A DNA stretch of 53,069 nucleotides from a virus (IMGVR_UViG_3300024051_000004:1-53069); one strand, 5' to 3'. Positions 23,542 through 46,099 are shown, counted from the stretch's first letter. The notes: a model not told the origin generated them from the sequence alone. Translations and numbers: made by a program.

Positions 23542-24537
23542 TCACGCCCCACGCCCGACACGGTCCGCGATGTCCCCCAACCGGAACAAGTCCCGACCAC
23601 GCGCATCCTGCCCCCGCACCACCAACACCCCCCGATGCACCCACTGCCGCAACGTCGCCGCCTGCACCCCCCGCGGTTTGAACACCCGCCGCGCGTCCTC
23701 CAACGTGACAAGCTCGTCCGGGTGCGTCACCGGCAACGCCTGATGCGCCTCCAGGATCGCCAACATGAACCGGCCCTCCGACTCCCATGTGATCCCGCAC
23801 CGGTCGCACCGGTGGGTGTCCGTCAACCCCCGGTCAGTCCACTGCCGGTGCACGGTCCCCCCGTCGTACGGGCAGGGGACAGCAGCACGGACGGGCCCTT
23901 GGGCGGCACCCGTGAGGGTCCGCAGGCGTGCCCGCAGCACAGCCAGGTCGGTCAGGAAGTCACCCCACGTGGCGGAGTGCTGTGCAGCCCACTGGACGTG
24001 CACCACCAGGTAGGTGGTGGCGGCATCCACACCGGTGACCGTCGCCGCATGCTGATGCTGCTCCTGCCGCCACGCGTCCTCCCAGAACGTGAGGACCGCA
24101 AGGATGGACGGCGGGTCACGGCGTTCCGCATCGAGGAGCGCCGGGTCGATCGTCGTCTCCCGGCGACCAAGCCTGGTCTTGTCCGCGGTCCCCCCCGCAG
24201 CCATCACGAACGCGTCACCCCCGACGATCTGCGTGTCGTCACCACGAGTGCCGCCAGTGCGGTCGTAGCGGATGGCGTGCAGGCCCGCAGCCGCGGCGAT
24301 CACGTCGGGGAGCTGCCGGTACAGGTCCCGCACCCCACGCAGGTCGTTGCGGGCCCGGGACACGCACGGTTCGCAGGTGCGGCCGACGGTCTCGAGCACC
24401 CGCCCGCATGGTTCGGTGCCGCCGCCGCGGCGCACCGGTGACTGGCATGCGGTGGCGGTCGCGGGGCATTCCGGGGTGTCGCACGTGTACGTCACGTAAT
24501 CGTCGGTCACCCACTGGTGACGGTGCAGGGTCGTCAT
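23542..24537 (-). CDS. Zn-binding + C-terminal HTH regulator (putative late activator)
   Basis: Several Cys pairs (CEPC, CDRC); LVTLEDA...VQAATLRQWVHRG...LFRLGDI MerR/Xis-type HTH; position before packaging genes. Confidence 0.7.
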   Translation of the reverse strand: MTTLHRHQWVTDDYVTYTCDTPECPATATACQSPVRRGGGTEPCGRVLETVGRTCEPCVSRARNDLRGVRDLYRQLPDVIAAAAGLHAIRYDRTGGTRGDDTQIVGGDAFVMAAGGTADKTRLGRRETTIDPALLDAERRDPPSILAVLTFWEDAWRQEQHQHAATVTGVDAATTYLVVHVQWAAQHSATWGDFLTDLAVLRARLRTLTGAAQGPVRAAVPCPYDGGTVHRQWTDRGLTDTHRCDRCGITWESEGRFMLAILEAHQALPVTHPDELVTLEDARRVFKPRGVQAATLRQWVHRGVLVVRGQDARGRDLFRLGDIADRVGRGA

Positions 24538-25316
24538 GGGCGGACCTCTCCGTGTGGGCGGTGCGACGTCAGCGACGGGAAGTAGTGGTCCTCCCACCCG
24601 TCCATGTCCTGCCCGTACACCACAGACCGGGCGGGTGCCTTCGACCGCAGCGGATGCACCCGCAACCACCGGTGGTCCATGACCCCGCCGTACGTTGCGG
24701 CGTATGCGGGGTGCACTGGCAGGTCGTGTGCATGCAGGTACGCGAACACCTGCACCGCGGACCATCGGCCGATCGGCCGGCATGTGCGTGCCGTCGTGGT
24801 CCCACGGTGGCCGATGCTCATGGCACGGACTCGTGACTCCTCGCCGCGGACCCCGGAGATGTACGGGCTGGTGATGTTCTCAGCGAGGACGTCCTGCGAC
24901 CGGTACCCGGGCTGGTCGAACTGTGCCGGGTCGTACCCGGGGTCCCCCCGCTTCGGGTTCCGTGCGACCGCGGGTCGTTCCTCGTACACGACACCGGGGT
25001 GTGCGGCGAGGAACGCGTCCCGCACGTCGTACGTCGCGGCCGCCTCGTAGCTGGTCCCGTCGCTGCGGATCGTGGGCACCCACACGATCGGGGTGGACGG
25101 GTTCGCGAGCCATGTCAGGTGGGCGACGACGACGGAGTCCTTCCCCCATGACGTCGAGCACACCGCGTCAGGGTGAGCCGCCACGAACGTGCGGATCTCC
25201 GCGACGGCACGGTCGGCGACCCCGTGCACGGACGCCCCCATGCGCCGGTGATACCGGGCGGCGTCTCCCCATGCGGCCAAGTCCTGGTCGGTCAGGGTCG
25301 GCATGTCGATCAGCAC
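24534..25316 (-). CDS. cysH: CysH-like PAPS reductase family protein (type IV-B associated)
   Basis: PP-loop STSWGKDS, ISGVRGEES..R, CRPIGRWS..QVFAYL..HDLPVHPAY. Confidence 0.85.
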   Translation of the reverse strand: MLIDMPTLTDQDLAAWGDAARYHRRMGASVHGVADRAVAEIRTFVAAHPDAVCSTSWGKDSVVVAHLTWLANPSTPIVWVPTIRSDGTSYEAAATYDVRDAFLAAHPGVVYEERPAVARNPKRGDPGYDPAQFDQPGYRSQDVLAENITSPYISGVRGEESRVRAMSIGHRGTTTARTCRPIGRWSAVQVFAYLHAHDLPVHPAYAATYGGVMDHRWLRVHPLRSKAPARSVVYGQDMDGWEDHYFPSLTSHRPHGEVRP

Positions 25317-26224
25317 CCCTGGGCCTCCTGTGCGGCACGCCGCCGGTCGCCCTTGACGAACGTCAGGACGTACTGGTGTCGGCGGGTCGTGGTGCGGCAC
25401 GCCTCCCACGGAGGTCGGGTCGTCTTCGCACGCAACCCGGCCGGTTCGACGAGGACCTGTTCGTTCACGAGTCGCGCCCCGGCCGTCTCGAACGCCTCGA
25501 TAGCGTGGTGCGGCAGGTGCCGCAGGTGTCCGTGGTGGTCCCGCACGTCAGAGATCACCCATGTGGCGAACCGGTCGGGTCGAAGGCATCGGACCGCCTC
25601 ACGGATGATCGCGGCGTGCACGGTCAGGAACCCGGGCCATGTCATCGCGGACAGGTCCCGCGGGTCGTCGGAGTACCGTTCCCGGTTCCAGTACGGCGGG
25701 CAGGACAGCACGTAGTCGACGCTGCCGTCCGGGATGGTGTCGAGCTCGGTCGCCGCGTCCCCGTTGACCCACCGTGGCGGGCGCGGCAGGTCCCATCGGG
25801 TCGCGACGGCATCGTTCGCGGCGACCTGCGTGGGGGACAGTTCGATACCGGTGTACGCCCGGCCCAGGGCGGCGGCGACGATCCCCCGTACCGGGCCACC
25901 GGCGAGGGGATCGAGAACCGCCCCCGCGGGCGGGCAGAACCAGGTGTAGGCGAGCTCAGCGAGGACAGGGTCGAACCGGGACACGCCGCCACTGGTGCGA
26001 CCGTGCCGACCGGTCGCGATCATCGCACCACGGCCCGCACGCGGGGTGAGGTCATCGACACCCTGCTCGTCCCACCATCCCTTGCGGGCCCGCCACGCCG
26101 GGGTCGACTGGTCCAGGACGGACCACGGCCAGATGCCGTGCACGTCCAACGGCGCGTACACCGACGGGTCGTCGGGGTGCCACACCCCACGCCCGTCACG
26201 GGTGCCGTGGGCGATGGTGGTCAT
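25310..26224 (-). CDS. SAM-dependent amino (m6A/m4C) DNA methyltransferase
   Basis: SRFDPVLAE, motif I VLDPLAGGPVRG, YTGIEL, motif IV SCPPY, ERYSDDPRDLS. Confidence 0.85.
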   Translation of the reverse strand: MTTIAHGTRDGRGVWHPDDPSVYAPLDVHGIWPWSVLDQSTPAWRARKGWWDEQGVDDLTPRAGRGAMIATGRHGRTSGGVSRFDPVLAELAYTWFCPPAGAVLDPLAGGPVRGIVAAALGRAYTGIELSPTQVAANDAVATRWDLPRPPRWVNGDAATELDTIPDGSVDYVLSCPPYWNRERYSDDPRDLSAMTWPGFLTVHAAIIREAVRCLRPDRFATWVISDVRDHHGHLRHLPHHAIEAFETAGARLVNEQVLVEPAGLRAKTTRPPWEACRTTTRRHQYVLTFVKGDRRRAAQEAQGC

Positions 26225-26844
26225 GCGGGGACCGTGACCTTCCGGGACGGGTGCCAGTACGGGGCCCGGAACGCACCCGTGGCCCCGGGGGTCGGCATGG
26301 GGCGGTCACGCCACCCGTCGGGGTTCGGGTCGTCCTGCACCACCCACCGGGTGACGTGCCCGTGCCCGATGTTCGCGTGCTTCCCGACGTGCGTGACGAC
26401 CGACAGGAGCGTCTCCAGTCGGGTCCGGTCCGTCGCGAGGACATGCCACGTCATGGTGTCGACGAGGACCGCGGCGACGGTCGTGTCCCGCGCCTTGTAC
26501 GGGCCGAGACCCGTGTGGTGGCGTCGGTCCTGCGTGAACCGGGCCATCGGGCCCGTCGCGGGCTTGCGACGCAACTCGACCGCCGTCCACGACCGCACGT
26601 GCACGGCCGCCTGGGATGTGCACCACCCCCACGTGCCGTGCGCCTCCCACCGCACCAACGGCAGGTCCATGTCCATGACCAGGTCCCGTGTCATCGACGG
26701 CAGTCCCGACCCGTCGCGTTGCGCCAGGGCCGCGGCCGCCCACGACAGGGGCGCGTCCAGCATGACCGGCACCTCGACGACCCCGACCGCGGGCGTGTCG
26801 AGGTGCGCGGTCACGACCAGCGGTGTGCCCAGTGGTGCGCCCAT
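26221..26844 (-). CDS. csf3: Type IV Cas5-group RAMP (Csf3)
   Basis: LVVTAHL, LDAPL, LPL, GPYK, G-rich loop VGKHANIGHGHV, C-terminal RAPYWHP. Confidence 0.85.
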   Translation of the reverse strand: MGAPLGTPLVVTAHLDTPAVGVVEVPVMLDAPLSWAAAALAQRDGSGLPSMTRDLVMDMDLPLVRWEAHGTWGWCTSQAAVHVRSWTAVELRRKPATGPMARFTQDRRHHTGLGPYKARDTTVAAVLVDTMTWHVLATDRTRLETLLSVVTHVGKHANIGHGHVTRWVVQDDPNPDGWRDRPMPTPGATGAFRAPYWHPSRKVTVPA

Positions 26845-26847
26845 CGG

Positions 26848-27726
26848 TCAGGCCGCGAGGTCAGCCAGGAGCGTCAGGATCGCGTCCCGCTCGTGCGCGA
26901 TGTGCCCCGTCCACTCGACGAGCTGGTCGTTCACGGTCGCCCAGTCCACCCCGGTGACCGTCGCCGCCCCGTACCCGAGGGCGGACTTCGCGCCGAGCCG
27001 CACGATCCCGTCCGGCGCCCACAGGGCGAGCGCGGCACCGAGCGCGACCCGGTGCCCTTCGGTCGCGGCCGGCGTCAGGCTGACCGTGCCGTACAGGACC
27101 GTACCCGCCTTCAGCGCCTGCACGTCGTAGATCATCTGCGTGCCGGTGACCTGCTGGGCTGCGTCGACGAACCGGGCGACGGGGGTCGACGTGATGTCGT
27201 GTCGGGTGCCGAACTCCTCCGTCCGGTACGCGGCGACACCCTGCTGTGCGTGCGGCAGGGCCTGCAGGTCCGCGGGTAGCCGCCACGCGTTCTCCCGGGC
27301 GACGACCTCCAGGTCCGACACCCGCAGGGTTCCGGCGACGATGTCGGACTTCGCGGCGTACCCGAGGAGGCCGAGCGCGGGGAACACGTCGTCGACCCGT
27401 CGGGCGATGTCCAGGTCGACCTGTGCGCCCGTGGCGGTGACGGCGCCACCGGACCACAGCAGGTCGACGACGCCCTTTGCGAGGGACCCGTCGGGGATGT
27501 TCAGCTCGCGGGCGGCGTGCCAGGCGAGCGCGTCCCGCAGGCCGTGCCGCACGGAGTTCGCGGAGACGAACGGGACACGGGTGTGCGTGCCGTCGGGCAG
27601 GGTGATCTCGTGGGTGCGCAGCAGGGCCGTGTTCCCGGACGTGCCGGCCCCGTGGTGCAGGGGTGCGGTGAGGGTGATCGTGAGGGTCGTGGTGTCCACG
27701 GTCGGGGTGATGGTCGTGGTGGTCAT
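26848..27726 (-). CDS. csf2: Type IV Cas7-group backbone (Csf2)
   Basis: TAPLHHG, VPFVSANSVRHGLR, LWSGG, PALGLLG, GTLRV, TRHD, QMIY, LGAKSALGYG. Confidence 0.9.
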   Translation of the reverse strand: MTTTTITPTVDTTTLTITLTAPLHHGAGTSGNTALLRTHEITLPDGTHTRVPFVSANSVRHGLRDALAWHAARELNIPDGSLAKGVVDLLWSGGAVTATGAQVDLDIARRVDDVFPALGLLGYAAKSDIVAGTLRVSDLEVVARENAWRLPADLQALPHAQQGVAAYRTEEFGTRHDITSTPVARFVDAAQQVTGTQMIYDVQALKAGTVLYGTVSLTPAATEGHRVALGAALALWAPDGIVRLGAKSALGYGAATVTGVDWATVNDQLVEWTGHIAHERDAILTLLADLAA

Positions 27727-28106
27727 CAGAACGTCGCCTCCGGGGTCGTCGTGGTGGTGGTCTTGCGGGTCTGCCGTTCGACGTCCGCGAGGGCGACGAT
27801 GTACACGATGTTCCGGTCGACGTGCGCCGCCCACGCCTGGTAGTCGCGGTCGATGACCGCGGCGACAGCCTTCACGGTCGCCGCGTGCCGGGTCGTGATC
27901 TGCGGGATCTGCAGTTTGCGGGCTGCGGTCGTGATCGCCGCGGCCGCGGTGTCCGCACCGGCGGCGGCGGTCGTCAGGGCGGTGGCGGCGCGGCCCCCGG
28001 TCCAGAACTCGAGCCGGGACGGGCCGTCGTCGGTGAGGGAGTCACGCAGTGCGAAGATCAGGTCGATCGTCGCCCGGTCGTACTCCTCGGTGGTGGGTGT
28101 GGTCAC
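27726..28106 (-). CDS. cas11: Type IV-B small subunit (Cas11-like)
   Basis: 126 aa all-helical protein between csf1 and csf2, overlapping both. Confidence 0.65.
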   Translation of the reverse strand: MTTPTTEEYDRATIDLIFALRDSLTDDGPSRLEFWTGGRAATALTTAAAGADTAAAAITTAARKLQIPQITTRHAATVKAVAAVIDRDYQAWAAHVDRNIVYIVALADVERQTRKTTTTTTPEATF

Positions 28107-28837
28107 TGCAGGTGTCCCTTCGTGATGGTCCACAGCGCGAGGCTGAGGAGCGGGGATCCGAGCCACGCGGTGAGCTCGGCGTTGTGCGTCGACCACTGGT
28201 GCAGGTCGTCGCGGGTCTTCAGGTAGCGGGGGGTGCCGTGCATGACGTCGTCGGCGGGGATGCCGAGGCGTCGCAGGGCGGTCGCGTGGGTGTGGACGTG
28301 CGCCCATTCGTCGGGGGTGGCGGTGACGGTGGTGGTCTCCATGCGGACTACCCACCGGCCGGGTCCGTCGTTGAGGTGCCCGTACGGCAGGACATGCTTC
28401 TGCCCGGACGTTGCGATGGTCACGGTCCACGGCCCGTCGGGTGGGGTGGTGAGGGTGTGCGCGACGAGCGTGCCGGTGTCGTCGCCGCGGGCGCCGAGGT
28501 ACAGGCCGGGCCGGTCCTGCAGGAACGCCTTGGGGTTCGACGCGGGTACCGACCGGTCGGGGGTTGCGACGATCGACCACATGCGCAGGGTCGCGGGGGG
28601 CTTCCCAGAGCAGCACCACAGGCATGCGGGGCACACCCGGTCGGACGACGGGTCACGGAACAGGGACCGGTCGGTGAAGTTCGCGCCCAACGCCCTGTTG
28701 ACGTCTGCGGTGCGGGGGACGGTGCGGGTGCAGATCGCACACACCCCGGCATAGTCCTTGACGAGTGCGGCGATGGTGGGGATCGGATCGGGTTCCCCGG
28801 CGAGATGCCACACGGTCACGGTGGGGGCGGTGCTCAT
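28103..28837 (-). CDS. csf1: Type IV large subunit (Csf1/Cas8-like)
   Basis: CAIC...NFTD...VCPAC Zn finger, PP..PW, SGQKHVLP. Confidence 0.8.
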   Translation of the reverse strand: MSTAPTVTVWHLAGEPDPIPTIAALVKDYAGVCAICTRTVPRTADVNRALGANFTDRSLFRDPSSDRVCPACLWCCSGKPPATLRMWSIVATPDRSVPASNPKAFLQDRPGLYLGARGDDTGTLVAHTLTTPPDGPWTVTIATSGQKHVLPYGHLNDGPGRWVVRMETTTVTATPDEWAHVHTHATALRRLGIPADDVMHGTPRYLKTRDDLHQWSTHNAELTAWLGSPLLSLALWTITKGHLQ

Positions 28838-29415
28838 GATGCGGCCCCGACGAGGAGGAGGCCGGCCCCGTACGCCTTCGCTGGGCCGACGCCGTCGCGG
28901 ATGAGACGTTCGAGGGTGTCGGGGTTGGTGACGGTGCCGGTGGCGTAGAACGCGCTGAGCCGGTGGGTGACGGTGGCTTCGTGTCGTGCACCGGTGCGGG
29001 TGCCGAGGGGTTGCACGGCGACGTCGTGGAGGGTGACGGCCCCGTCGAGCTTGCGTCGCAACCAGTCGGCGTGCTGGTCGATCGGCAGGGGGATGCGTCG
29101 ACCACGGACCCCGCGGGGGGTGGGGGTGAGGGTGACGGGGTTGCCGATGAGGGAAATGCGTACGGGGGTCCCGGACGCCCATCGGGGGCGGGCGGGACCG
29201 GAGTGGGATTCGACGACTCCGCCGATCGCAGCCGCCCGGATGGGTGCCCCGGCTTGCACGATGACGATGTCTCGGGTGGGGTTCGCCCACAGGACCCGGC
29301 CGGGGTTGTCGACGTCGAGCGCGTGCAGGATCGTGCGGTGCAGGGTTTGCGTGTCGCGGGGTGCGCTGTGGTGCGCGAACCGTAGTTCGGTCAGGTGCAG
29401 GGTGGGTTGGGTCAT
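28834..29415 (-). CDS. cas6e: Cas6e (Cse3/CasE-like) crRNA-processing RAMP
   Basis: LHRTI, RVLW, VIVQ, L.GNPV, RRIPL, WL.RK, G-rich loop GVGPAKAYGAGLL. Confidence 0.85.
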   Translation of the reverse strand: MTQPTLHLTELRFAHHSAPRDTQTLHRTILHALDVDNPGRVLWANPTRDIVIVQAGAPIRAAAIGGVVESHSGPARPRWASGTPVRISLIGNPVTLTPTPRGVRGRRIPLPIDQHADWLRRKLDGAVTLHDVAVQPLGTRTGARHEATVTHRLSAFYATGTVTNPDTLERLIRDGVGPAKAYGAGLLLVGAAS

Positions 29416-29741
29416 GCGTCGCCTCGCAGTGGGGTGAACGTGTACCGGAACGCGGTGATGTCGTCACGCCACCCGCAGTGTTCGCATTCCGTCCCGATGT
29501 TCGGGTCGTCGAACGACCGGTCGACCCGGTACCCGTCGCATGCGGTGAACCGGTCGGTGCTGCCGCAGCGGGGGCAGGTGGCGGCGACCCACCATGCGGC
29601 GGGCCCGGTGTCGGGGTGTCCGAGGTATGTGCGCCCGCCGTCGGTGAACTCGTCGATGCCGTGGCCTTCGTCTTCGCAGGGCAGGGCGGGGGTGAAGTCG
29701 AGGTCGGTGAGGACGTCCGGCAGGGTGATCGGGGCGGTCAC
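29412..29741 (-). CDS. Zn-finger hypothetical protein coupled to cas6e
   Basis: CPRC and CEHC motifs; ATGA overlap with cas6e. Confidence 0.6.
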   Translation of the reverse strand: MTAPITLPDVLTDLDFTPALPCEDEGHGIDEFTDGGRTYLGHPDTGPAAWWVAATCPRCGSTDRFTACDGYRVDRSFDDPNIGTECEHCGWRDDITAFRYTFTPLRGDA

Positions 29742-31893: not shown

Positions 31894-33219
31894 TCAACGG
31901 TCATGCCATGACGGTTCACGGTCCTGCACCGGAACAGGCGCAGGACGCCACTGGCGGGGCGTCATCTCTGAGAACGCACCACCACGAGTGAGTTCCACCA
32001 CCCCGCACTGTCCCTGCCGGTTCTTCGCTACGAGCATGTCCAACGCTGTCTCGTCGTCGTCATGCTCGTGCAACAGCAACACAACGTCACTGTCCTGTTC
32101 CACAGCTCCCGACTCGCGAAGGTCAGCCATTGATGGTCGCTTGTCCTGCCGCTGCTCGGGTCCACGGTTCAACTGTGACAACGCAATCACCGGGACCTGC
32201 AATTCCTTCGCGAGGAGCTTCAGCCCGCGTGAAAACTCCCCAACGACCTCTGCACGATTCCGCTTTTCCATGCCACGCGGGGCTGTCATCAACTGCAAAT
32301 AGTCGACGACGATGCCAGCCAACGGGCGCCGGTGCGCGACCGTCCGCGCGAACGCCCGGATCCCTGCCGGGGTCAACGACGACCGGTCGTCGATCGCGAT
32401 CGGCAACGATGCGAGCTCGGCCCGGTGTCGGGCGATCCGCGCCCAGTCCTCGTCGGTCAGGTCGTGTGCGTCGATCCGGTTCCCGGGAACCCGGGCGAGG
32501 TGCGCGAGGATCCGCTGCTCGACCTCGACCCGCGGCATCTCCAACGATGCGATCACCACAGCCCCGTGCTGTGCCAGGTGCACCGCGGCCTGCACCCCGA
32601 CGATCGACTTCCCGACCGCAGGTCGTGCCCCCACCACGTACAGGGCGCCGGGACGCCACACCCGGATCAGTCGGTTCAGGTCCGGCCACGGTGTCGGGTA
32701 CCCGGTCGGTTCCGTCTCGAGCGCTTCGAGGGTCGTGTCGATCGTGTCCCCGATGAACCCTGTCGACACGGCTGCGGTGCCGGTTGCGACCGCATCGACC
32801 TCCGCCCGGCACGTCTCGACGAGTGCTGTCACGTCCCCCTCGCCGGCTTGTGCGAGTTGGGTGATGCGGGTCCCGGCGGCGGCGAGACGCCGCAGCACGG
32901 CCTGTTCGTGCACGATTCGTGCGTAGAACTGGGCGTTGGTGGTGGTGACGACACCGTTGATGAGCTGGTGCAGGTACGGCAGCCCGCCGATGGTTGCGAG
33001 TTCCCCGGTGCGGGTCAGGTGGTTCCCGACGGTGATCGCGTCGACGGCGTCCCCGGTGCGGTGCAGCTGCAGGATCGCCGCCCAGATGATCGTGTGCTTC
33101 GGTGCGTACAGGTCGTCGGGGGTGATGACGTCTGCGACGTCGTCGATGCCGGTGGGGCGCAGGAGGCACGCACCGAGCATCTGCGTCTCGGCTTCCCGGT
33201 GGTCGATGATCGCGTTCAC
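31894..33219 (-). CDS. dnaB: Replicative DNA helicase
   Basis: GARPAVGKS, SLEM, VVDYLQLM, LSQLNR, DLRESGAVEQDSD, AKNRQG. Confidence 0.95.
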   Translation of the reverse strand: MNAIIDHREAETQMLGACLLRPTGIDDVADVITPDDLYAPKHTIIWAAILQLHRTGDAVDAITVGNHLTRTGELATIGGLPYLHQLINGVVTTTNAQFYARIVHEQAVLRRLAAAGTRITQLAQAGEGDVTALVETCRAEVDAVATGTAAVSTGFIGDTIDTTLEALETEPTGYPTPWPDLNRLIRVWRPGALYVVGARPAVGKSIVGVQAAVHLAQHGAVVIASLEMPRVEVEQRILAHLARVPGNRIDAHDLTDEDWARIARHRAELASLPIAIDDRSSLTPAGIRAFARTVAHRRPLAGIVVDYLQLMTAPRGMEKRNRAEVVGEFSRGLKLLAKELQVPVIALSQLNRGPEQRQDKRPSMADLRESGAVEQDSDVVLLLHEHDDDETALDMLVAKNRQGQCGVVELTRGGAFSEMTPRQWRPAPVPVQDREPSWHDR

Positions 33220-34037
33220 TGGCCGTCACCACCGCCACGGCGGGGTGCGTACCGGTCCCACGGTGACGTGGTCGGTGCGGTGGCGGGCGCCCCGGTGCGG
33301 GGGTCCGTGCGGGGCGGCAACGGTTCGTCGTCCCACCGGCCTGCGTTCAACCATGTGGCGGGGTGCGGGATGAACTCCTTGGCGGGCAGGTTCGGGTCTG
33401 CGGCGAACCGGTGGGCGCCTGCCGTGATCGTGTCGTGCCCGACCCTGCGGGCCGCCTTGTCGAACGCACGCCGGGCGGCGTCCTTCCCGACCTTCCGCGG
33501 GTACGCCGACCAGAACGTGTCGAACGCACCCGTGGGCACACGGACCGTCGCCGGCGCAGCCGGTGACGAAGAGTCTTTCTCCTCTGTTCCTCTGTTCCCC
33601 TGTTCCCCTGTTCCATGCCGGAGGGTTCCGGGAGGGTTCCGGGAGGGTTCCGGGAGTGGCGCGCCGATGATGGAGTCCCGAAAGTTCATTGTGCCGTCTG
33701 GCCTGGGGAAACGTCCGCGGGTCGGCTTCTCGATGCGTTGGATCGACTCCCAGAACGCGATGTACAGGAGTCGGTTCCCGTCGGCCTCGTATCGCCACAG
33801 GAGACCAGCGTCGGAGAGCGCGTTGAGGGCTTCCGCAACCTTCCGGAGGGTTCCGGGAGGGTTCCGGGAAAGGTCCCGGGGGAACACGTCTGCGACGATG
33901 AGCGGCAGGTCGTCCTTCCCGACCCCGTTGTCGTCGACGAACGACTCGAGGCCCTTCAGGACGAGCCGCGCGTCCCAGTCGACGGACGCGACACGGGCGG
34001 ACCGCCAGAACTCTGGCTTGGTGCTGCGGATGCGCAT
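33216..34037 (-). CDS. Phage replication initiator
   Basis: MRIRSTKPEFW...DDNG N-terminus; FDTFWSAYPRKVGK...HPATWLNAGRWDDE C-terminus; coupled to dnaB. Confidence 0.85.
   Translation of the reverse strand: MRIRSTKPEFWRSARVASVDWDARLVLKGLESFVDDNGVGKDDLPLIVADVFPRDLSRNPPGTLRKVAEALNALSDAGLLWRYEADGNRLLYIAFWESIQRIEKPTRGRFPRPDGTMNFRDSIIGAPLPEPSRNPPGTLRHGTGEQGNRGTEEKDSSSPAAPATVRVPTGAFDTFWSAYPRKVGKDAARRAFDKAARRVGHDTITAGAHRFAADPNLPAKEFIPHPATWLNAGRWDDEPLPPRTDPRTGAPATAPTTSPWDRYAPRRGGGDGQ
33584..33866. repeat. Iteron-like repeats inside initiator gene (putative origin)
   Basis: GGAGGGTTCCG x3 at 33620-33652 and x2 at 33845-33866; CTGTTCC x4 with 8-nt period at 33584-33614. Confidence 0.7.
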
Positions 34038-34327
34038 CAGGATCGCCCACCGGCCCGATCGTGCAGGTCGAGGCATGCGGTGAGCTCGTCGATGACCTGG
34101 CGTGCGTTGCGGGCGGCCTGGTCGGCGGCGTGCAGGGCTGTCTCGATGCGGACCCGCCCAACCGTGTCGGACCGGTACAGGGGGGTGGCGAGCGACCCGA
34201 GCGCCGTCAGGGTTGCCGCGCATGCGTTGCGTGCCGCCGCCCAGTGGGTCTGGAACTCACGGTTCGCGACGTCGAACGGGACGACGACGGGTGTCGGGGG
34301 TGGGTCGGGGACGACATGCAGGGTCAT
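34037..34327 (-). CDS. Hypothetical protein
   Basis: Coupled overlaps with neighbours. Confidence 0.5.
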   Translation of the reverse strand: MTLHVVPDPPPTPVVVPFDVANREFQTHWAAARNACAATLTALGSLATPLYRSDTVGRVRIETALHAADQAARNARQVIDELTACLDLHDRAGGRS

Positions 34328-36106: not shown

Positions 36107-36420
36107 CGTCCTCCTGACTTCTGGCTGGCACGGTGCAGGGCTGCGCACATCCCGCACCTCGTGCCGCGTTGCGTGCTAATGCGGCGTGCCGCTGACGCCG
36201 GGTGCCCGCACGGCAGCAGGCCGCCGCGGCCGGGGTCGACCCGCCCGCCGGGCAGGCCGATCACCCCGAGCAGGTCGACTGCGTCGGCGGGGCTGGTGGC
36301 GTGCGCGCACACCACGAGGGACACGTGCCGGGTCACGGCAGGGTCCAGTGCGGGGATCGGTTCGTCGGAGTCGACGAGGAGCCGGTGGGCGAGCAACCGG
36401 TGCGCACTGGTCGCGGTCAT
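36103..36420 (-). CDS. Hypothetical protein
   Basis: Coupled overlaps; CGH...CGMC. Confidence 0.5.
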   Translation of the reverse strand: MTATSAHRLLAHRLLVDSDEPIPALDPAVTRHVSLVVCAHATSPADAVDLLGVIGLPGGRVDPGRGGLLPCGHPASAARRISTQRGTRCGMCAALHRASQKSGGR

Positions 36421-38078
36421 GCCGCCACCTCCCCGGTGATCGCCTCGACGACCGTCGCGATCAGGTCACGCGCGGCGGGTGGGGTGACCGCGTTCCCGCT
36501 GAGCTTGACCTGCTCCCGGCGGGTCCCGAGCATCACGTAGTCACCCGGGAACGCCATGGCCCGCTTGATCTCGCCCGGTTCGAGCATCCGGAACCGCACG
36601 TCGTCGATGTCGAGCGTCGGCGGGCCAGACAGGTACGCCTGGTGCCCGACAGTGGTGACGGTCCGAACAGGCTCGGTGACGGGAGTGGTCATGGACGACT
36701 GGTCTTCGCCGCGTTGGGTGTTCATCCGCATGACCAGGCCGTGGTGCGTGCCCGAGGCGGTGACCGTGGACAGCGGGTCCGTGGTCGACCTGGCCGTAGA
36801 CCCGCCGCCGCGAAGCTCTGCGATGAACGGCGGGTAGAGCATCCCGTGGCCGCCACCGCCGGCGGTCGTCATCGTCGGGCCCGGCTCGTCGACGGGCCGG
36901 GCGCGGTTGCCCCATGTGTTCGTCATGACCAGGGGGGGCAGCATGACGCCCTCTTCGTGACGGGCGGTCTGGGTGCGCATCGGGTCCAGGGACGAGCGCA
37001 CCCGACCGTCACCGTCGCGCCCTGACGTGTCCACCAGGGCGGGCGGCAGCACGAGCCCCTTGGATTCGCCCGTGTGCTGCGTGCGCACCGGCTCGAGACT
37101 CGACCACGCCCGCCAGTACGACTCCGGGTCCATGAACCCGGGATGCTTCGGGTCGGCAGCGTCCCACCCGTTGACCGTCTCCACGAGCAGCGGGTGCCAG
37201 AACCGGCGCACCCCGTGCTCGATGCGCCGCATCGTCTTGGCCGACAGGGGCTTGGCCCGGTCCCCGATCCTGGTTCCCGTGTTCGACAGGTCGATGAACG
37301 ACAGGGCAGGCAACCACCCGGGTTCGACGATCTGCCCGCGACACGACACCTTCGGGCACCGGTACACGTACTGCGCCCGGTACCGACCCGTGACGCTGGA
37401 CGCCTTCTTCCAGGACTGCACCGCATCGACAAGCTCGCCGCACGACGGGCACCACGCGCGAGGCCGCTGCATCCGCTCGAAGTCCGGGGCCCGCTCACCC
37501 TCACGCCAGAACGCGATGTACACCCGGTCCCGGGACTGCGGTGCGGGCAGACCGTACGCCTGCGCGTGCATCGAGTTCAGGGAGATGATCCGGTGCCGGT
37601 ACCGCATGGCGTGCATCGACTGCAACCACGCCTCGAACAGTGCACCCGGGTACCCGTTCGGGGACGTCCAGTCGACGACCTCGACGACGTTCTCCACGAG
37701 GATCGCCCGGTACTCGTGCGCCTCCGCGAACCGCACGACGTCCCACATCGTCGCCCGGGACCGTTCCGCCGCAGCATCCGGCAGGGTCTCCCCGAACAGG
37801 TCCGGCTGCCGGGCCTGCTTACGGCCCTTCGCCCGCGAGTGGTTCGTGCACTCCGGGGACGCCCACAGCAGGTCCGTGCCCGGGATGAACCGCGGGTCGG
37901 TCTGCGAGATGTCCGCCTGCAGGTGGTCAGTGTTCGGGTGGTTCGCGTTGTGCGTCTCGATCGCCCGATCCCAGTGGTTCGCGGCGAGACGAACCTGCAC
38001 CCCCCCGGTTGCGACCGCACCCGTGGACGACCCGCCAGCACCGCAGAACAGGTCCGTCATCGTGAGGTTCGCACTCAC
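36417..38078 (-). CDS. C5-cytosine DNA methyltransferase
   Basis: DLFCGAGG, SPEC catalytic motif, VENV, PQSRDR, GNAV. Confidence 0.93.
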   Translation of the reverse strand: MSANLTMTDLFCGAGGSSTGAVATGGVQVRLAANHWDRAIETHNANHPNTDHLQADISQTDPRFIPGTDLLWASPECTNHSRAKGRKQARQPDLFGETLPDAAAERSRATMWDVVRFAEAHEYRAILVENVVEVVDWTSPNGYPGALFEAWLQSMHAMRYRHRIISLNSMHAQAYGLPAPQSRDRVYIAFWREGERAPDFERMQRPRAWCPSCGELVDAVQSWKKASSVTGRYRAQYVYRCPKVSCRGQIVEPGWLPALSFIDLSNTGTRIGDRAKPLSAKTMRRIEHGVRRFWHPLLVETVNGWDAADPKHPGFMDPESYWRAWSSLEPVRTQHTGESKGLVLPPALVDTSGRDGDGRVRSSLDPMRTQTARHEEGVMLPPLVMTNTWGNRARPVDEPGPTMTTAGGGGHGMLYPPFIAELRGGGSTARSTTDPLSTVTASGTHHGLVMRMNTQRGEDQSSMTTPVTEPVRTVTTVGHQAYLSGPPTLDIDDVRFRMLEPGEIKRAMAFPGDYVMLGTRREQVKLSGNAVTPPAARDLIATVVEAITGEVAA

Positions 38079-38884
38079 CGCGCACCGCCACCGTTGCGGC
38101 CGACACCCCATGCGATCAGCCCGACCAGCATGGTGATCACCGCGGCAAGAAACAGGACCGCACCGTCGACGCCGGTGGCGGCAAGCTCAGGGGCGCCGGT
38201 CAGGGTTGGTGTCGGGGTGGGGTTCGCGGTCGACAGGACCTGGGACGGGATCACCGGTGATGGCGAGGCCGATGACGCGGCGGACGCCGACGTCGGGTTC
38301 GGGGCCGGGATCGGGGATGGGACCGAGGATGGTGTTGGGGTCGAACTCGTCGACGGGGATGATGCGGACGGCGCCGGGACGGGCGGCGTGGTGTCGGCCT
38401 CGGAACCGGGCGAGGGTGAGGCGGTGGGAGAGCTCGTCGGCGTGGACGAGGCCGTCGACTCCGGGGTCGGCGTGGCGGTAGGGGTCGGGGCGGGGGTCGT
38501 CGGGCATGGGTGCGGCTCCTTCGTGTGGTGCGGCGTGTGCAGGCAGACGGGCTTCTGACCGCCCTCCCCGAAGTGCTCGGACGCGCCCGACCACTGGACC
38601 CACACGACGCACCCGTCGGTGATCCCGAACGCCGACCACGGGACGAAGCTCTGACCGACCCAGGACGCGCCCGGGTGGCCGTTGTTCGGGTCGATGTGCA
38701 GGCCGTGCGTCACCCCGTCCGCGGTGCGGACGTTGATGTGCGAGTGCGCATGCAGCGGCGACGGGAACGTCAGGCCGTCGCGGCTGACGGTGTACGGGGT
38801 CGGGTCACCGGACCCGGTGCCCCATGCGGGGGCCGCGAACATCACGGCGACGGCCACTACGGTGGCGACGATGAGACGCCTCAT
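38075..38884 (-). CDS. Secreted, sortase-anchored (LAxTG) surface protein
   Basis: Signal peptide MRRLIVATVVAVAVMFAAPAWG; P/T/S linker; ELAATG + TM + basic tail. Confidence 0.8.
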   Translation of the reverse strand: MRRLIVATVVAVAVMFAAPAWGTGSGDPTPYTVSRDGLTFPSPLHAHSHINVRTADGVTHGLHIDPNNGHPGASWVGQSFVPWSAFGITDGCVVWVQWSGASEHFGEGGQKPVCLHTPHHTKEPHPCPTTPAPTPTATPTPESTASSTPTSSPTASPSPGSEADTTPPVPAPSASSPSTSSTPTPSSVPSPIPAPNPTSASAASSASPSPVIPSQVLSTANPTPTPTLTGAPELAATGVDGAVLFLAAVITMLVGLIAWGVGRNGGGAR

Positions 38885-38970: not shown

Positions 38971-39171
38971 TCAGGTGGTGCGGGTCAGGAGCCGCATGCG
39001 CGCGGTCTCCTCGTCCCGGTCGGCTTGCTGTCGGGCCTGCCGGTTCGCGACCCTGTGCGCGGACGCGATCGCACGGGTCCACGTGCCGCGACGCCACACG
39101 ACGGGCCGATGGGTGTCCGTCGACGTGAACACGACGCACCACACCCCGTCGACCTTCGACACCCGGATCAC
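38971..39171 (-). CDS. Hypothetical protein
   Basis: GTGA-coupled to methyltransferase. Confidence 0.5.
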   Translation of the reverse strand: MIRVSKVDGVWCVVFTSTDTHRPVVWRRGTWTRAIASAHRVANRQARQQADRDEETARMRLLTRTT

Positions 39172-40127
39172 GACGACGCCCCGAACAGAGTCGCCGCGGA
39201 CATCTCCCGGTCCAGGTCCCGCATGTTCGACACGGCGGTCGACCAGTACGACGGCTTCAGCTCGCACCCGATGCCGCGACGCCCGAGCCGGACAGCCGTG
39301 TACACCTCGGACCCGATGCCTGCGAACGGTGTCAGGACGAGCTCGCCCGGGTTCGACCACAGGCGGACGCACCGTTCGATCAGCCCCAACTGCAGGGGTG
39401 CGATGTGCCGTTCGTCGGCGTCTTCACGGGCGACCCGGACGTTCAGGGTGTCGGACTCCCGGATGCCGTACCAGACGGGGCACAGGTTCCCGTCGTCGGT
39501 GAGCCACCCGCCCTCGTGGTGATCCGTCCAGATCGGTGACGCCCAGTCGATCCAGTCGTCGTTCGTGACCTCACCCTCGCGGGCGTCGTGCCGGATCGGC
39601 GTCTCGTTGTCCCCGGGCTTCTTGAACACCAGCACGTAGTCCGCCATCGCAGGTCGTGACTGTGCGGAGTCCCGGTTCTTCGTCTGGAACGCGAGAGCGA
39701 ACGCCTTCGTGCGGATCGACTGGGCCTGCGGGTCCTTCCACACGGTGACCTCGCCGTAGAAGATCCACCCGACGGACTGGAACAGTCGGATCACGTCACC
39801 CCGGAAGTCCGTCAACCCGACGAACCCGTCGACAGCCTTCTTCGTAGCGACCTGCTGCACGTGGATCACCGCGTTACGGCCCGGCTTCGTCACCCGAAGC
39901 TGCTGCTCCACGATGAACCGGTAGTGGTCGAGGAACTCCACCCGGGACGCGGAGTTCCCCAGGTCCCGCGGCGACGGCGAGTAGGTGTACAGGGAGTCGA
40001 ACGGGGGGGAGCACACCGACAGGTCCACGCTGTCGTCGTCGAGCTCCGCGAGGCGTTCGCACGAGTCGCCCAGCATCAGCCGCCACATGGCCCCCGTGGC
40101 GTCGTCGGTCACGTACGAGTCGTTCAT
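39168..40127 (-). CDS. N4/N6 DNA methyltransferase (beta order)
   Basis: GDSCE, SPPF..LY.Y, HIAPLQL, VLTPFAGIGSE, ELKPSY. Confidence 0.9.
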   Translation of the reverse strand: MNDSYVTDDATGAMWRLMLGDSCERLAELDDDSVDLSVCSPPFDSLYTYSPSPRDLGNSASRVEFLDHYRFIVEQQLRVTKPGRNAVIHVQQVATKKAVDGFVGLTDFRGDVIRLFQSVGWIFYGEVTVWKDPQAQSIRTKAFALAFQTKNRDSAQSRPAMADYVLVFKKPGDNETPIRHDAREGEVTNDDWIDWASPIWTDHHEGGWLTDDGNLCPVWYGIRESDTLNVRVAREDADERHIAPLQLGLIERCVRLWSNPGELVLTPFAGIGSEVYTAVRLGRRGIGCELKPSYWSTAVSNMRDLDREMSAATLFGASS

Positions 40128-41431
40128 GCTGCGGCCCTCTCCTGACGGGCGCGCCGCATCTCCGTGACGAGGGCCGCGCTGATCGCCGCGGCCTCCCTCT
40201 CCTTGCGGCGCACGTTCTCTGCGATCTGCTGCTCGATGGACGACACGACGACGTGTGCACGCACCACCCGGGTCTGCCCAAACCGGTAGAACCTGCGGAT
40301 CGCCTGGTAGTACGTCTCGTACGAGTCGTTGATCCCAACAAACGCGGTCCTTGCGCAGTGCTGCCAGTTCAGCCCGAACGACGCCATCGACGGCTTCGTC
40401 ACCAGGACCCGAATGTCACCGGCCGCGAACCTCAGGAACCGGTCCGCCTTGTCCTCCGGCGGCATCGACCCATGCACGTTCACCGCGTCGGGGATGCCGG
40501 CCGTCAGGGCGTCAGCCTCGTCGTTCAGGCCGCACCACAGCACCCACGGTTCGTCCGGTTCGGCGTGGACGATGTCGATGGTCCGACCGACACGCGCATC
40601 GAGGGTCGCGCGGCGCATCGCCGCACGCCCACCGACACCACCCAGGTCAGTCGCGAACAGCTGACCGTCCGGGACAACGTCGATCGGCAGGATCTCGGGC
40701 ACGACATCGAGGCCGGGCAGGTCATACCCAGTGTCGTCTCCACCGATGTCGGACGGTTTGCGCAGCGCCACCGCCCACGTCGCCATCCACGACAGCATCG
40801 GGGCACGGGCGTGCCCCTTGGGGCGCCACCCGTCGGCGTCGTGAACGAAGTACGCGGCGAGCATGTTCACCCGGGTCATGTGTCCCAGGAACTCGGCTTG
40901 GTTCGTGAGTTCCTCCGGGTCGTTCGGTGCCGGTGTGGCGGTGCACGCGAGCCGGTACGGCACGTCCCGGAAGTGACGGATGAGCATGGTGCGGGTCTTC
41001 CCATCGGACTGCTTCAGGATCGACGCCTCGTCCAAGACGACCGCGGTGAGCGCAGCCGGGTTGAACCGGTGGACCATCTCGTAGTTCGTGACCCAGATCC
41101 CGGGCCCGGTGATCTCGTCGCCAGACCGCACGTACGTGGCGGTGGCGCTGACCTTCGGCGCTTCGACCTGTGCGGTCTGCTGGCAGACGGCCAGGGGCGC
41201 GACGATCAGGACGGTCCCGCCGATCCGCTGCGCCCATTCGATCTGCATGACGGTCTTCCCGAGGCCGGTGTCCGCCCAGATCGCGGCGCGTCCGGTCTTG
41301 AGTGCCCACGCGACGATGTCCCGCTGCCACGGGTGCAGGAACGGGTGCAGGCGGTCAGGGTCGACGTCGATCCCGTCTGCTGGGGCCGCGGCGATCTTCC
41401 GTTCGAGGAACTCCCGGTATCCGCGGATCAT
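40124..41431 (-). CDS. SF2/SNF2-like helicase
   Basis: DTGLGKT, TNYE, VLDEASILK, TATPAPND, GLNWQ, QAIRRFYRFGQ. Confidence 0.9.
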   Translation of the reverse strand: MIRGYREFLERKIAAAPADGIDVDPDRLHPFLHPWQRDIVAWALKTGRAAIWADTGLGKTVMQIEWAQRIGGTVLIVAPLAVCQQTAQVEAPKVSATATYVRSGDEITGPGIWVTNYEMVHRFNPAALTAVVLDEASILKQSDGKTRTMLIRHFRDVPYRLACTATPAPNDPEELTNQAEFLGHMTRVNMLAAYFVHDADGWRPKGHARAPMLSWMATWAVALRKPSDIGGDDTGYDLPGLDVVPEILPIDVVPDGQLFATDLGGVGGRAAMRRATLDARVGRTIDIVHAEPDEPWVLWCGLNDEADALTAGIPDAVNVHGSMPPEDKADRFLRFAAGDIRVLVTKPSMASFGLNWQHCARTAFVGINDSYETYYQAIRRFYRFGQTRVVRAHVVVSSIEQQIAENVRRKEREAAAISAALVTEMRRARQERAAA

Positions 41432-41470
41432 CGGGGAGCCTTCGGGTCGTCCCACTCGACCTCGTGCAGG

Positions 41471-45114: not shown

Positions 45115-45149
45115 CGCACTGCCTTCCTCGTCCGTGGTGTTGATGCTGG

Positions 45150-45377
45150 TCATGCCGGTTCGCCCGTCTCGTCGACACCCCAGTCGACGTGCATGTCCCG
45201 GTCGTTCACCGTCAGGTGTTCGAGCGTGTCCGCGGCCCGGTCGGCTTCTGCAGCGGTGACCCGCATCCCGGCCGCTGCGGCCTCGCGGGCTTCGTGACGG
45301 AGCATCGCGACGAGGACCAGCCGCGCATGCGTGAGCGTCACCATGACGGGCGCGATGGTGGTGTCGGCGGTGGTCAT
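45150..45377 (-). CDS. Hypothetical protein
   Basis: GGAGG RBS, ATGA overlap. Confidence 0.55.
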   Translation of the reverse strand: MTTADTTIAPVMVTLTHARLVLVAMLRHEAREAAAAGMRVTAAEADRAADTLEHLTVNDRDMHVDWGVDETGEPA

Positions 45378-46099
45378 GCGGTTGCCTCCATGTACTCGGG
45401 GACCGGGTGCACCGGCCACGTGCCGTCCACGACGACGGTCGGGTTGTCGCGCCGCAGCCACTCCTGCAGCGACTCGCACTGCTCACGCCGCCAGTGGACC
45501 TGCCCGTCGTGCAGGACACGGGCGTCAGCAGGCGGGGTGGGCTTCCCTGCTGCGATGAGGGCACGGGGGATCGCCCGGGCGATGTGCACGGCAGCGAGCG
45601 CGTCCGCGTCCGCGGTGTGCGCGGCGTCGAGCTGGACCCCGTAGTGCTCGGCGCACGCGGTGAGGGTGCGCTTCCCGCGCCGGTACCGGTCGGCCTGCTT
45701 GTCGAGGACGAACGGGTCGATCACCGGGGCCGGGGTGAGCGGGATGACGCCGTAACGGCGGGCCTCCCGGTCGAGGACCGTGAAGTCGTAGGCCGCGTTG
45801 AACGCGACCAGCGGGGTCCCGCTCTTGATCGCACTGTCGAGTGCCGCGATGACCTCCGCGACCACGTTGCGCGCCGGGAAGCCGTGCGTGCGCGCGTGCC
45901 CGGTGGTCACGCCGTGCACGGCCGTCGCCCCCTCGGGGATGTCGACGCCCGGGTCGGCCAGCCACGTCATAGGAGCGGTCGAGCCGTCATCTCCGACCAC
46001 GACCACGCACGCGGTGACGATGCGCGCCTCGTCCGGGTCGGGACCCGTTGTCTCGAGGTCGAACCCGACGAGCGGGCCATCCCACCATGCGGCGCTCAC
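45374..46099 (-). CDS. DnaQ-like DEDDh 3'-5' exonuclease
   Basis: FDLETTG, FNAAYD, IDP, AHTADADA. Confidence 0.92.
   Translation of the reverse strand: MSAAWWDGPLVGFDLETTGPDPDEARIVTACVVVVGDDGSTAPMTWLADPGVDIPEGATAVHGVTTGHARTHGFPARNVVAEVIAALDSAIKSGTPLVAFNAAYDFTVLDREARRYGVIPLTPAPVIDPFVLDKQADRYRRGKRTLTACAEHYGVQLDAAHTADADALAAVHIARAIPRALIAAGKPTPPADARVLHDGQVHWRREQCESLQEWLRRDNPTVVVDGTWPVHPVPEYMEATA

Follow-up and report, generated by a model that had tools for sequence, protein, structure and literature searches.

Where does a CRISPR effector obtain its guides when it is carried by a phage, has a Cas6e of its own and comes with no array? The question is raised by the virus record IMGVR_UViG_3300024051_000004, a single contig of 53,069 base pairs (bp). 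It was analysed whole; the window in the following is therefore the complete record, and an array lying just outside it is excluded. An earlier note on this DNA had described seven genes, cas6e, csf1, cas11, csf2, csf3, a DNA methyltransferase (MTase) gene and a cysH-like gene, as a phage-borne, array-less type IV-B-like operon, and had seen in them a candidate for an undescribed system. We find the window to be the complete genome of a siphovirus-like actinobacterial phage, which carries a mobile cassette belonging to a distinct type IV-B subclade. As a tentative answer to the question, we propose that the phage Cas6e loads type I-E CRISPR RNAs (crRNAs) of the host into a nuclease-free Csf complex, which would make the cassette a multi-protein anti-CRISPR that acts by guide hijack.

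The cassette and its relatives

Coordinates, order and junctions of the seven genes were reproduced, all on the minus strand, and profiles match each gene to its expected family. The cassette begins with cas6e (29415-28834, 193 amino acids (aa)), which shares an ATGA overlap with csf1 (28837-28103, 244 aa), the gene of the Cas8-like large subunit, and csf1 in turn shares a GTGA overlap with cas11 (28106-27726, 126 aa), encoding the type IV small subunit. A TGATG overlap of 1 nucleotide (nt) leads to csf2 (27726-26848, 292 aa; the Cas7 backbone), and a 3-nt gap to csf3 (26844-26221, 207 aa; Cas5). The MTase gene (26224-25310, 304 aa) follows in a variable slot, joined to csf3 by an ATGA overlap, and overlaps by 7 nt with the cysH-like gene (25316-24534, 260 aa), whose product has the fold of 3′-phosphoadenosine 5′-phosphosulfate (PAPS) reductase and ATP alpha-hydrolase. 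For this last gene the GTG at 25316 was taken as the start, with AGGAGG 8 nt upstream; the alternative ATG at 25304 gives a 5-nt gap after the MTase gene.

Cas6e matches PF08798 with 6e-18 (66.3 bits, cut-off 25; residues 10-189 on profile positions 5-221 of 223) and the PADLOC Cas6/Cas6e profile with 1.7e-20. The other effector proteins are recognized by PADLOC as well, Csf1 by Csf1_0_IV (1.8e-33; TIGR03114 weakly, 2e-7), Cas11 by typeIV_Cas11 (Csf4gr11; 7.1e-55, residues 1-120 of 126), Csf2 by typeIV_Cas7 (9.5e-95; Pfam RAMPs 4e-6) and Csf3 by Csf3_0_IV (1.4e-29; TIGR03116 1e-19). The MTase matches Pfam N6_N4_Mtase with 1.7e-7 (31.9 bits, cut-off 26.7) over half of the profile, and the CysH-like protein matches PAPS_reduct (PF01507) with 4.5e-10, above the cut-off. 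The NCBIfam equivalogs for Csf1, Csf2 and Csf3 are matched below their curated cut-offs, as is that for Cas6e (TIGR01907, 26.9 bits against a cut-off of 45.2), indicating diverged members of these families. The cassette was also considered as a decaying remnant and this was rejected: all seven open reading frames (ORFs) are open, and catalytic and motif residues are invariant across 24-26 sequences.

The set agrees with type IV-B in having csf1, csf2 and csf3, Cas11, an adjacent cysH-like gene and no associated array, and in that no DinG or RecD helicase, effector nuclease or adaptation gene was found among the 37 window ORFs scanned, small ORFs being covered in part. Type IV-B is also expected to have no Cas6, and here cas6e is the first gene, as it is in 32 of 32 relatives. 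Because of the Cas6e gene we file the cassette as a variant, not as canonical IV-B.

The array-less state holds for the whole 53-kilobase (kb) record, in which neither Tandem Repeats Finder nor a search for spaced direct repeats found a CRISPR-like array. Rfam gave 0 matches in the window at E <= 1, as did a type I-E hairpin pattern, a looser pattern giving scattered GC hairpins only, and a search for a phage-encoded mini-array or solitary repeat found none. A stretch with short tandem repeats at 31.9-34.3 kb (2.4 kb), considered in this search, is coding, for a DnaB helicase and a replication initiator. When host Cas3, Cse1, Cse2, Cas7e, Cas5e and Cas1 were used as tblastn queries against the window no match was obtained, and Cas6e was the sole host type I-E query that matched (9e-6). 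PADLOC detected no Cas1, Cas2 or DinG on 10 further window ORFs, and the sole non-DnaB helicase checked, at 40124-41455, is of the SNF2/DEAD type and not DinG.

A search for relatives with Csf2 44-69% identical to that of the window yielded 32 loci, 21 on viral contigs of IMG/VR and 11 in genomes; six of the 11 genome loci duplicate IMG/VR loci, and the slot was compared over 27 non-redundant loci. The genomes belong to Nocardia, Corynebacterium, Phytoactinopolyspora, Brevibacterium, Scrofimicrobium, Cutibacterium and Frankia. The synteny in actinobacterial prophages for which the earlier note had proposed a search is real for cas6e and the csf genes, the order cas6e-csf1-cas11-csf2-csf3-...-cysH being kept in all 32 loci, and includes an adjacent MTase in no more than 17 of 27. 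Immediately upstream of csf1, 32/32 loci have a Cas6e-like ORF (29 by tblastn and three by a hidden Markov model (HMM) of the clade; that of L022 is split over two frames), and the overlap of cas6e and csf1, 4 nt or, in three loci, 8 nt, is kept in all 29 loci tabulated. With tblastn the CysH-like gene was detected in 30 of the 32 loci, L022 giving no match. For L030, from C. striatum, three RNA runs of the same species gave 0 reads, which is no test of expression.

More distant type IV-B loci, with Csf2 25-33% identical, are those of Skermania phage SPI1, an archaeal plasmid, and Mycolicibacterium and Rhodococcus plasmids; the clade HMM found no Cas6e-like ORF in three of the more distant loci (L001-L003). 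The clade is not tiny: out of 1.84 billion cluster representatives, a Csf1 profile retrieved 111 at E <= 1e-30. When the cassette was compared by blastn with 50,697 phage records, a set that may lack near relatives, one chance-like match of 129 nt was the only result.

Comparison by tblastx indicates how the cassette is distributed over phage backbones. The window phage and the prophage of genome G002 have the cassette alone in common, the window phage and the G176 prophage have the cassette and a tape-measure segment in common, and two Corynebacterium prophages have in common the cassette and blocks with lysin, tape-measure and single-stranded DNA-binding protein genes. The position is variable too: the cassette stands before the packaging genes in the window, between replication genes and terminase, and in L009, and before the replication genes in L011, L012, L016 and L029. 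Since it is common to otherwise differing phages and its position varies, the cassette travels as a unit between unrelated backbones.

If the cassette is to process repeats, its Cas6e should have kept the features of the enzyme. The profile of the clade Cas6e matches the solved structures of Thermus Cse3 (1wj9/2y8w, 2e-16) and E. coli CasE (4qyz, 7e-15). His26, invariant in 24/24 aligned sequences and by eye in 30/30, aligns in the profile search of solved structures onto His26 of Thermus thermophilus Cse3, which we take to be the catalytic histidine. The residues G175, G177, G183 and G185 of the C-terminal glycine-rich loop are likewise invariant in the 24 sequences, the loop aligning with the GVGPGKALGLGLL loop of Cse3, and so are Trp43, Pro93 and Trp118. 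The phage Cas6e thus looks active, as far as conserved residues can tell. Compared with the host Cas6e of the same genome, it is ~25-29% identical in six of ten pairs, and the remaining four give short C-terminal matches only (32-61 aa at 33-50%); judged by these identities, the phage enzymes are old relatives of the host enzymes and not recent copies.

Several observations on Cas6e stand apart from this. At L010 5273-5303 (= L043, the G176 prophage), codons 4-13 of the annotated cas6e ORF contain a solitary I-E-like repeat; its 5′ part and stem are as in the host type I-E repeat, its loop and 3′ handle differ, and its folding energy is -11.6 kcal/mol. It is the only such repeat upstream of or at cas6e in the 23 upstream regions inspected, and may serve as a binding site for Cas6e or be the scar of a recombination. 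In L019 (729-1784, a metagenome viral contig) and L035 (5683-6762, a Frankia symbiont genome) Cas6e has a C-terminal extension of ~170 aa, rich in CxxC pairs and conserved between both. Cas6e-like genes with 37-77 bits on PF08798 were seen in L036-L042 and L044-L046 (genomes G336, G552, G495, G259, G378, G078, G141 and G010), with no Csf genes within 5-9 kb and, in L041 and L042, an ORF of ~540 aa following; they may be solo Cas6e homologues. Finally, in G382 (C63:11212-16924) a distant Csf2-like gene (38.6 bits, 34% identity) has a Cas6e-like gene (97.5 bits) ~5 kb away, and this locus may represent a further type IV variant with Cas6e.

The slot between csf3 and cysH is less constant. An MTase is adjacent to the cassette in 17 of the 27 non-redundant loci, 11 of the N6_N4 type and six of the D12 (Dam-like) type, and in ten there is none; its position varies between the slot, the place after cysH and a place upstream, the D12 enzyme being in the slot in L007, L008, L013, L029 and L032 and after cysH in L018. 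The repeated recruitment of two unrelated MTase families into one slot is noteworthy. The MTase of the window has an invariant S-adenosylmethionine (AdoMet) motif DPxAGGxxRG and a catalytic tetrad CPPY, with the Cys invariant in 12/12 sequences where D/N/S-PPY is the usual form, and its motif order is circularly permuted relative to the Pfam N6_N4 model, the AdoMet motif preceding the tetrad. Its family has at least 575 viral relatives, and among the 80 best family loci one (the contig of L017) has IV-B genes. A role as a dedicated subunit of the cassette was therefore rejected, 79 of these 80 loci being without any IV-B gene; from its family the enzyme is probably a generic phage anti-restriction passenger that gains from co-expression.

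Small genes for winged-helix or XRE-type helix-turn-helix (HTH) proteins also occur in or beside the slot. A small winged-helix protein is encoded beside cysH in L005, L010-L012, L016, L018, L021, L023 and L024, and in L007, L027 and L029 it forms a C-terminal fusion with CysH, a hint of the Rosetta-stone kind that the two proteins work together. In the CysH-like protein, the PP-loop S56-W57-G58-K59-D60-S61 has a nearly invariant K59 and is otherwise invariant in 25 sequences, several Arg and Glu positions are invariant or nearly so, and the same alignment contains no conserved C-terminal catalytic Cys motif. This agrees with the description of ‘CasCysH’ as ATP alpha-hydrolase-like and without the reductase cysteine (PMC8175902).

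Host type I-E systems and self-targeting spacers

If the phage has no repeats, does the host provide them? A canonical Cas6e (at least 190 bits) is present elsewhere in the genome in 11 of the 12 cassette-bearing hosts (G001-G010, G209 and G176; cassettes counted from Csf2 searches), the exception being G010. Six of the 12 are Corynebacterium, and the other six are all positive for type I-E. As base rates, 74 of 201 genomes are positive in G002's genus and 44 of 399 in the class; within the genus sample type I-E was found in 4/4 cassette carriers versus 70/197 others (Fisher, p = 0.017). Low-scoring PF08798 matches were tried as a proxy for the cassette and discarded, as 10 of the 11 places fetched had no nearby Csf genes.

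The host loci look intact from their gene content. Type I-E arrays with a 61-bp period and 8 to more than 110 spacers are present in 10 of 11 host regions fetched, and the ORF pattern cas3-cse1-cse2-cas7-cas5-cas6e-cas1 in 9 of 10 fetched loci, that of G007 being rearranged. Cas3 is a full-length ORF with a helicase domain in 8/8, and its HD domain was recognized (E <= 1e-10) in 7/8, the exception being G006/L052. In G176, ~4 kb separate the end of the host type I-E locus (C1:2,092,221-2,108,534) from the edge predicted for the cassette prophage (2,112,826-2,163,366).

We determined which spacers of these arrays match the genome that carries them. In G002, 26 of 98 spacers do so with three mismatches at most, 18 of them perfectly and all within a 42-kb prophage, and the protospacer adjacent motif (PAM) is AAC or AAG in 23. 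G176 has 29 self-hits among 114 spacers (17 perfect, PAM GAC in 19), and in G006 the 35 hits of 75 spacers all lie within ~50 kb around the cassette, with none elsewhere in the 2.8-Mb genome. Lower numbers were obtained for G007 (22/85, 13 around the cassette), G009 (10/21, one beside the cassette and nine in another element), G008 (9/28), G003 (6/35, at 17-26 kb from the fetched locus) and G004 (5/43); partial data for G005 gave 2/14. Altogether 142 of 499 spacers in eight cassette hosts hit resident elements, mostly the IV-B prophage. Eight controls of the same genus with type I-E and no cassette gave 0, 17, 0, 0, 0, 0, 0 and 1 hits, that is 18 of ~722 spacers, where spacers of cassette hosts were counted as repeat-bounded and those of controls as array length divided by 61. 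At least two self-hits were found in 8/8 cassette hosts versus 1/8 controls (Fisher, p = 7e-4).

These numbers leave out the query array itself, other CRISPR arrays and matches shorter than 25 nt (22 nt in G025, 24 nt in G083). Also left out were three long hits of low identity in G037 (two of 81-82% over ~52-55 nt and one of 75% over ~75 nt), G007 C35 (79% over 50 nt), G008 C1 (70% over 154 nt), G009 C1 (85-88%) and G008 C54, 29 nt adjoining the array.

The combination of perfect, PAM-proper self-targeting spacers with an intact Cas3 indicates that these prophages block type I-E interference. The same logic of self-targeting has been used to find anti-CRISPRs (PMC7708048).

Possible functions of the cassette

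A conserved and apparently active Cas6e, coupled to an effector without repeats, calls for RNA supplied in trans. It is possible, and we hold it with somewhat less than even confidence, that type IV-B in this phage clade is a guide thief, whose own Cas6e captures the type I-E crRNAs of the host and so neutralises or re-uses its immune memory. The phage Cas6e would bind and cut the repeats of the host type I-E precursor crRNA and, being translationally coupled to Csf1, would nucleate the assembly of Csf3, Csf2, Cas11 and Csf1 on host guides. Such a complex, having no Cse1, would not recruit Cas3, so that host guides would be diverted into nuclease-free particles and drained from Cascade, and matching protospacers might in addition be shielded by the Csf particles. 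The net effect would be that a phage or prophage coexists with a host whose type I-E arrays target it. A drain that acts in trans would also protect other elements in the cell, as in G007 and G009, and the MTase would be a generic anti-restriction enzyme co-expressed in the same counter-defence operon.

We favour guide hijack because the cassette is the only accessory module common to the unrelated self-targeted prophages and combines a repeat nuclease with a guide-less effector. It would then be the cassette, rather than another prophage gene, that blocks type I-E, and by analogy with its relatives the same may apply to the window's own phage. The content of the slot, MTases and small HTH proteins, fits the pattern of a counter-defence operon. 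It is a familiar arrangement that small HTH genes stand beside anti-CRISPR genes; PMC7708048 makes mention of aca genes. The earlier note had left the choice between a modification or silencing complex and a counter-defence device, and of these it is the counter-defence part that is favoured by the evidence, namely type I-E hosts with arrays full of prophage spacers.

Several points weigh against guide hijack. Genome G010 carries the cassette and has neither a canonical Cas6e nor clustered type I-E repeats, the host genomes are few and phylogenetically clustered, and the controls are unmatched for prophage content. In control G025, 17 of 96 type I-E spacers match a prophage-sized region (C1:2,106,863-2,169,611; L070-L073) without IV-B genes, which presumably carries another type I-E inhibitor, and part of the self-hits in G007 and G009 lie in other elements, which fits a trans-acting inhibitor or a weak host type I-E system equally. 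The divergence of phage and host Cas6e is old and a specificity for host repeats is putative; the window phage has no integrase among the 37 ORFs scanned, and the evidence on hosts comes from relatives. The near-universal cysH-like gene is left unexplained. From the literature, the IV-B complex of the JS623 plasmid, which has no Cas6 of its own, bound heterogeneous RNA in E. coli provided with a type I-E Cas6 and an array, and crRNAs made up ~0.12% of the bound reads (PMC7937560). Type IV-B as a whole is negatively correlated with type I-E, and an anti-CRISPR of such complexity was judged unlikely (both PMC7038947).

Much of this would be accommodated if the cassette had no connection with host type I-E, assembled on non-CRISPR RNA and worked with CysH in some other phage function, a reading that we consider unlikely. 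Self-targeting would then be tolerated by way of other small anti-CRISPR genes or of weak type I-E interference. The heterogeneous RNA of the JS623 complex (PMC7937560), the heavily self-targeted G025 prophage without IV-B, the G010 cassette without type I-E, the self-targeted elements beyond the cassette prophage in G007 and G009 and the conserved CysH, for which guide hijack has no place, all fit it. What it leaves unexplained is that a conserved and apparently catalytic Cas6e of the I-E type is coupled to Csf1 in 32/32 array-less loci, that type I-E is present in 11 of 12 hosts against base rates of 11-37%, and that unrelated self-targeted prophage backbones have essentially the cassette alone in common.

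The phage could also take up host type I-E crRNAs through its own Cas6e for its own use, in a nuclease-free silencing of competing phages or plasmids resembling CRISPR interference by a catalytically inactive effector, for superinfection exclusion or competition between elements and not to disarm the host. The Cas6e with its catalytic His, the missing array and the co-occurrence with host type I-E are as expected for such co-option, and there is precedent in type IV-A, which silences without a nuclease, and in IV-A3, which took a type I-E Cas6 and correlates positively with type I-E (PMC7038947; PMC12669027); reviews propose competition between phages for prophage type IV (PMC11656645). We nevertheless regard it as improbable, since a quarter to half of the spacers in G002, G176, G006, G007, G008 and G009 match the resident prophage and would lead to self-repression, type IV-A needs a DinG or RecD helicase and none is present in the scanned window ORFs, and the survival of lysogens under Cas3-competent self-targeting would be left unexplained.

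Very improbable, finally, is the RNA-guided modification suggested by the earlier note, in which the Csf ribonucleoprotein would direct the embedded MTase, CysH or both to their targets: the MTase lies inside the operon with overlapping stops and starts, its presence at 17 of 27 loci with N6_N4 and D12 enzymes in the same slot argues for selection on co-expression, and epigenetic roles of CysH have been speculated upon (PMC7038947), but ten loci have no adjacent MTase, its position varies, its family is a generic phage one with 79 of the 80 best loci free of IV-B genes, two more MTases are encoded elsewhere in the window phage, and the phage has no source of guide RNA.

Phage background, known systems and significance

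Beyond the cassette, 30 ORFs were scanned with PHROG and Pfam, and they show a siphovirus-like phage with its genes read on the minus strand. It encodes a large terminase, portal, protease/capsid, tape measure and minor tail proteins and an endolysin, and for replication and recombination a DnaB-like helicase, a replication initiator, a sliding clamp, RecT with a YqaJ exonuclease, and an SNF2 helicase. No transfer RNA was found in the window, whose G+C content ranges over 68-75%. Of its three DNA MTases, the two outside the cassette, both on the minus strand, are a C-5 cytosine MTase (36417-38111; PF00145, 2.6e-26) and a full-length N6_N4 MTase (39168-40127; PF01555, 1.1e-18).

The coupled chain of the earlier note holds for the seven genes and is not limited to them, as one further coupled gene lies on each side. 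Downstream, the ATG of a 331-aa gene (24537-23542, minus; PHROG 1467, 2474) with a MerR-like HTH at its C-terminus forms an ATGA overlap with the cysH stop; a homologue stands behind the cassette only in L009/L028, so the gene is not conserved with it. Upstream, a small Cys-rich ORF (29412-29741 or longer, minus) has its stop overlapping the cas6e start by 4 nt; it gave no family match beyond a sub-threshold zinc finger and no homologue in related loci.

Two repeat-rich genes were noted besides. In the replication initiator gene (33216-34223, minus), 11-nt and 8-nt in-frame repeat units at 33580-33869 encode a recurring PEPSRNPPGTLR-like peptide and could double as iterons. At 44212-44857, ~54 tandem copies of a 12-nt unit (alternatively, a 60-nt period) sit in a 686-aa ORF (43504-45564, minus) with a glycine zipper and a DUF6745 domain, where the G+C content peaks at 75%.

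How far is the cassette new? To call it an undescribed system is too strong: type IV-B is ‘sometimes’ found in prophages of Actinobacteria, and Cas6 in IV-B is on record as ‘rare exceptions: only 12 instances’, which may include members of this clade (PMC7038947), and type IV-B of viruses and phages is already known (PMC10848311; PMC11656645). Canonical IV-B, as on the Mycobacterium sp. JS623 megaplasmid and on Rhodococcus and Mycobacterium plasmids, is alike in having csf1-cas11-csf2-csf3 with a cysH-like gene on an actinobacterial mobile element, and in having no array, adaptation genes, helicase or nuclease. The cassette described here differs in its own I-E-type Cas6e coupled to csf1, in its variable MTase/HTH slot, in being phage-borne and not on a plasmid, with Csf2 25-33% identical to the plasmid forms, and in co-occurring with host type I-E instead of avoiding it (PMC7038947).

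Type IV-A3 is similar in that a type IV effector has a Cas6 recruited from type I-E, together with a positive type I-E correlation and I-E-like repeats (PMC7038947), and in depending on type I-E functions in trans (bioRxiv 10.1101/2023.06.23.546257). It differs by its own array, its DinG helicase, the absence of Cas11 and CysH and its location on proteobacterial conjugative plasmids, whereas the cassette has neither array nor helicase. The IV-B of the Bathyarchaeia ‘Fuxiviridae’ is likewise virus-borne with CysH and proposed to interfere with host immunity (PMC10848311); it belongs to an archaeal virus, has a mini-array in which two repeats enclose a single spacer, and is reported without a Cas6, in contrast to the Cas6e and the missing array found here. 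In Skermania phage SPI1 (KR011061, L001), the one record in the phage collection that Csf2 matched (29.9% identity), Orf40-43 match Csf1, Cas11, Csf2 and Csf3, and Orf44 is CysH-like; Orf39 upstream of csf1 has no Cas6 match, and there is no MTase in the operon. This IV-B set is unannotated, the Orfs all being labelled hypothetical.

Mobile elements that subvert CRISPR by mixing their own components with those of the host are known from the RNA anti-CRISPRs (Racrs), viral solitary repeats that trap host Cas6/Cas7 (PMC10651486; PMC11656645). The arrangement proposed here would be the mirror image, viral Cas proteins trapping host RNAs. A precedent for guide borrowing exists in the CRISPR-associated transposons, which bind host crRNAs through Cas6 (PMC11656645); the cassette differs from them in having no transposition genes. 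A literature search, which left subscription journals and supplementary files uncovered, found no description of a Cas6e-coupled phage clade, its slot, a positive link with type I-E or prophage self-targeting.

The function of type IV-B, the last CRISPR-Cas subtype in this position, is still called unknown in the literature of 2024-2026 (PMC12669027; PMC11656645). The single biochemical study, on the JS623 plasmid form that lacks a Cas6, saw no loading of crRNAs (PMC7937560). The Cas6e-bearing phage subclade makes this question directly testable: it names a candidate RNA substrate, the host type I-E repeats, and offers natural test beds in lysogens whose type I-E system looks intact and whose arrays each hold 5-35 self-targeting spacers. 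Should guide hijack be wrong, the self-targeted prophages would still mark further inhibitors of type I-E. Should it be true, type IV-B would gain a role, and a new class of counter-defence would be added, in which whole Cas effectors are turned against CRISPR; the cassette would mirror, in protein, the RNA anti-CRISPRs and would be the largest known device of the anti-CRISPR kind. The extensive signatures of CRISPR autoimmunity in Actinobacteria would be explained as well, including lysogens with dozens of perfect, PAM-proper spacers against their own prophage.

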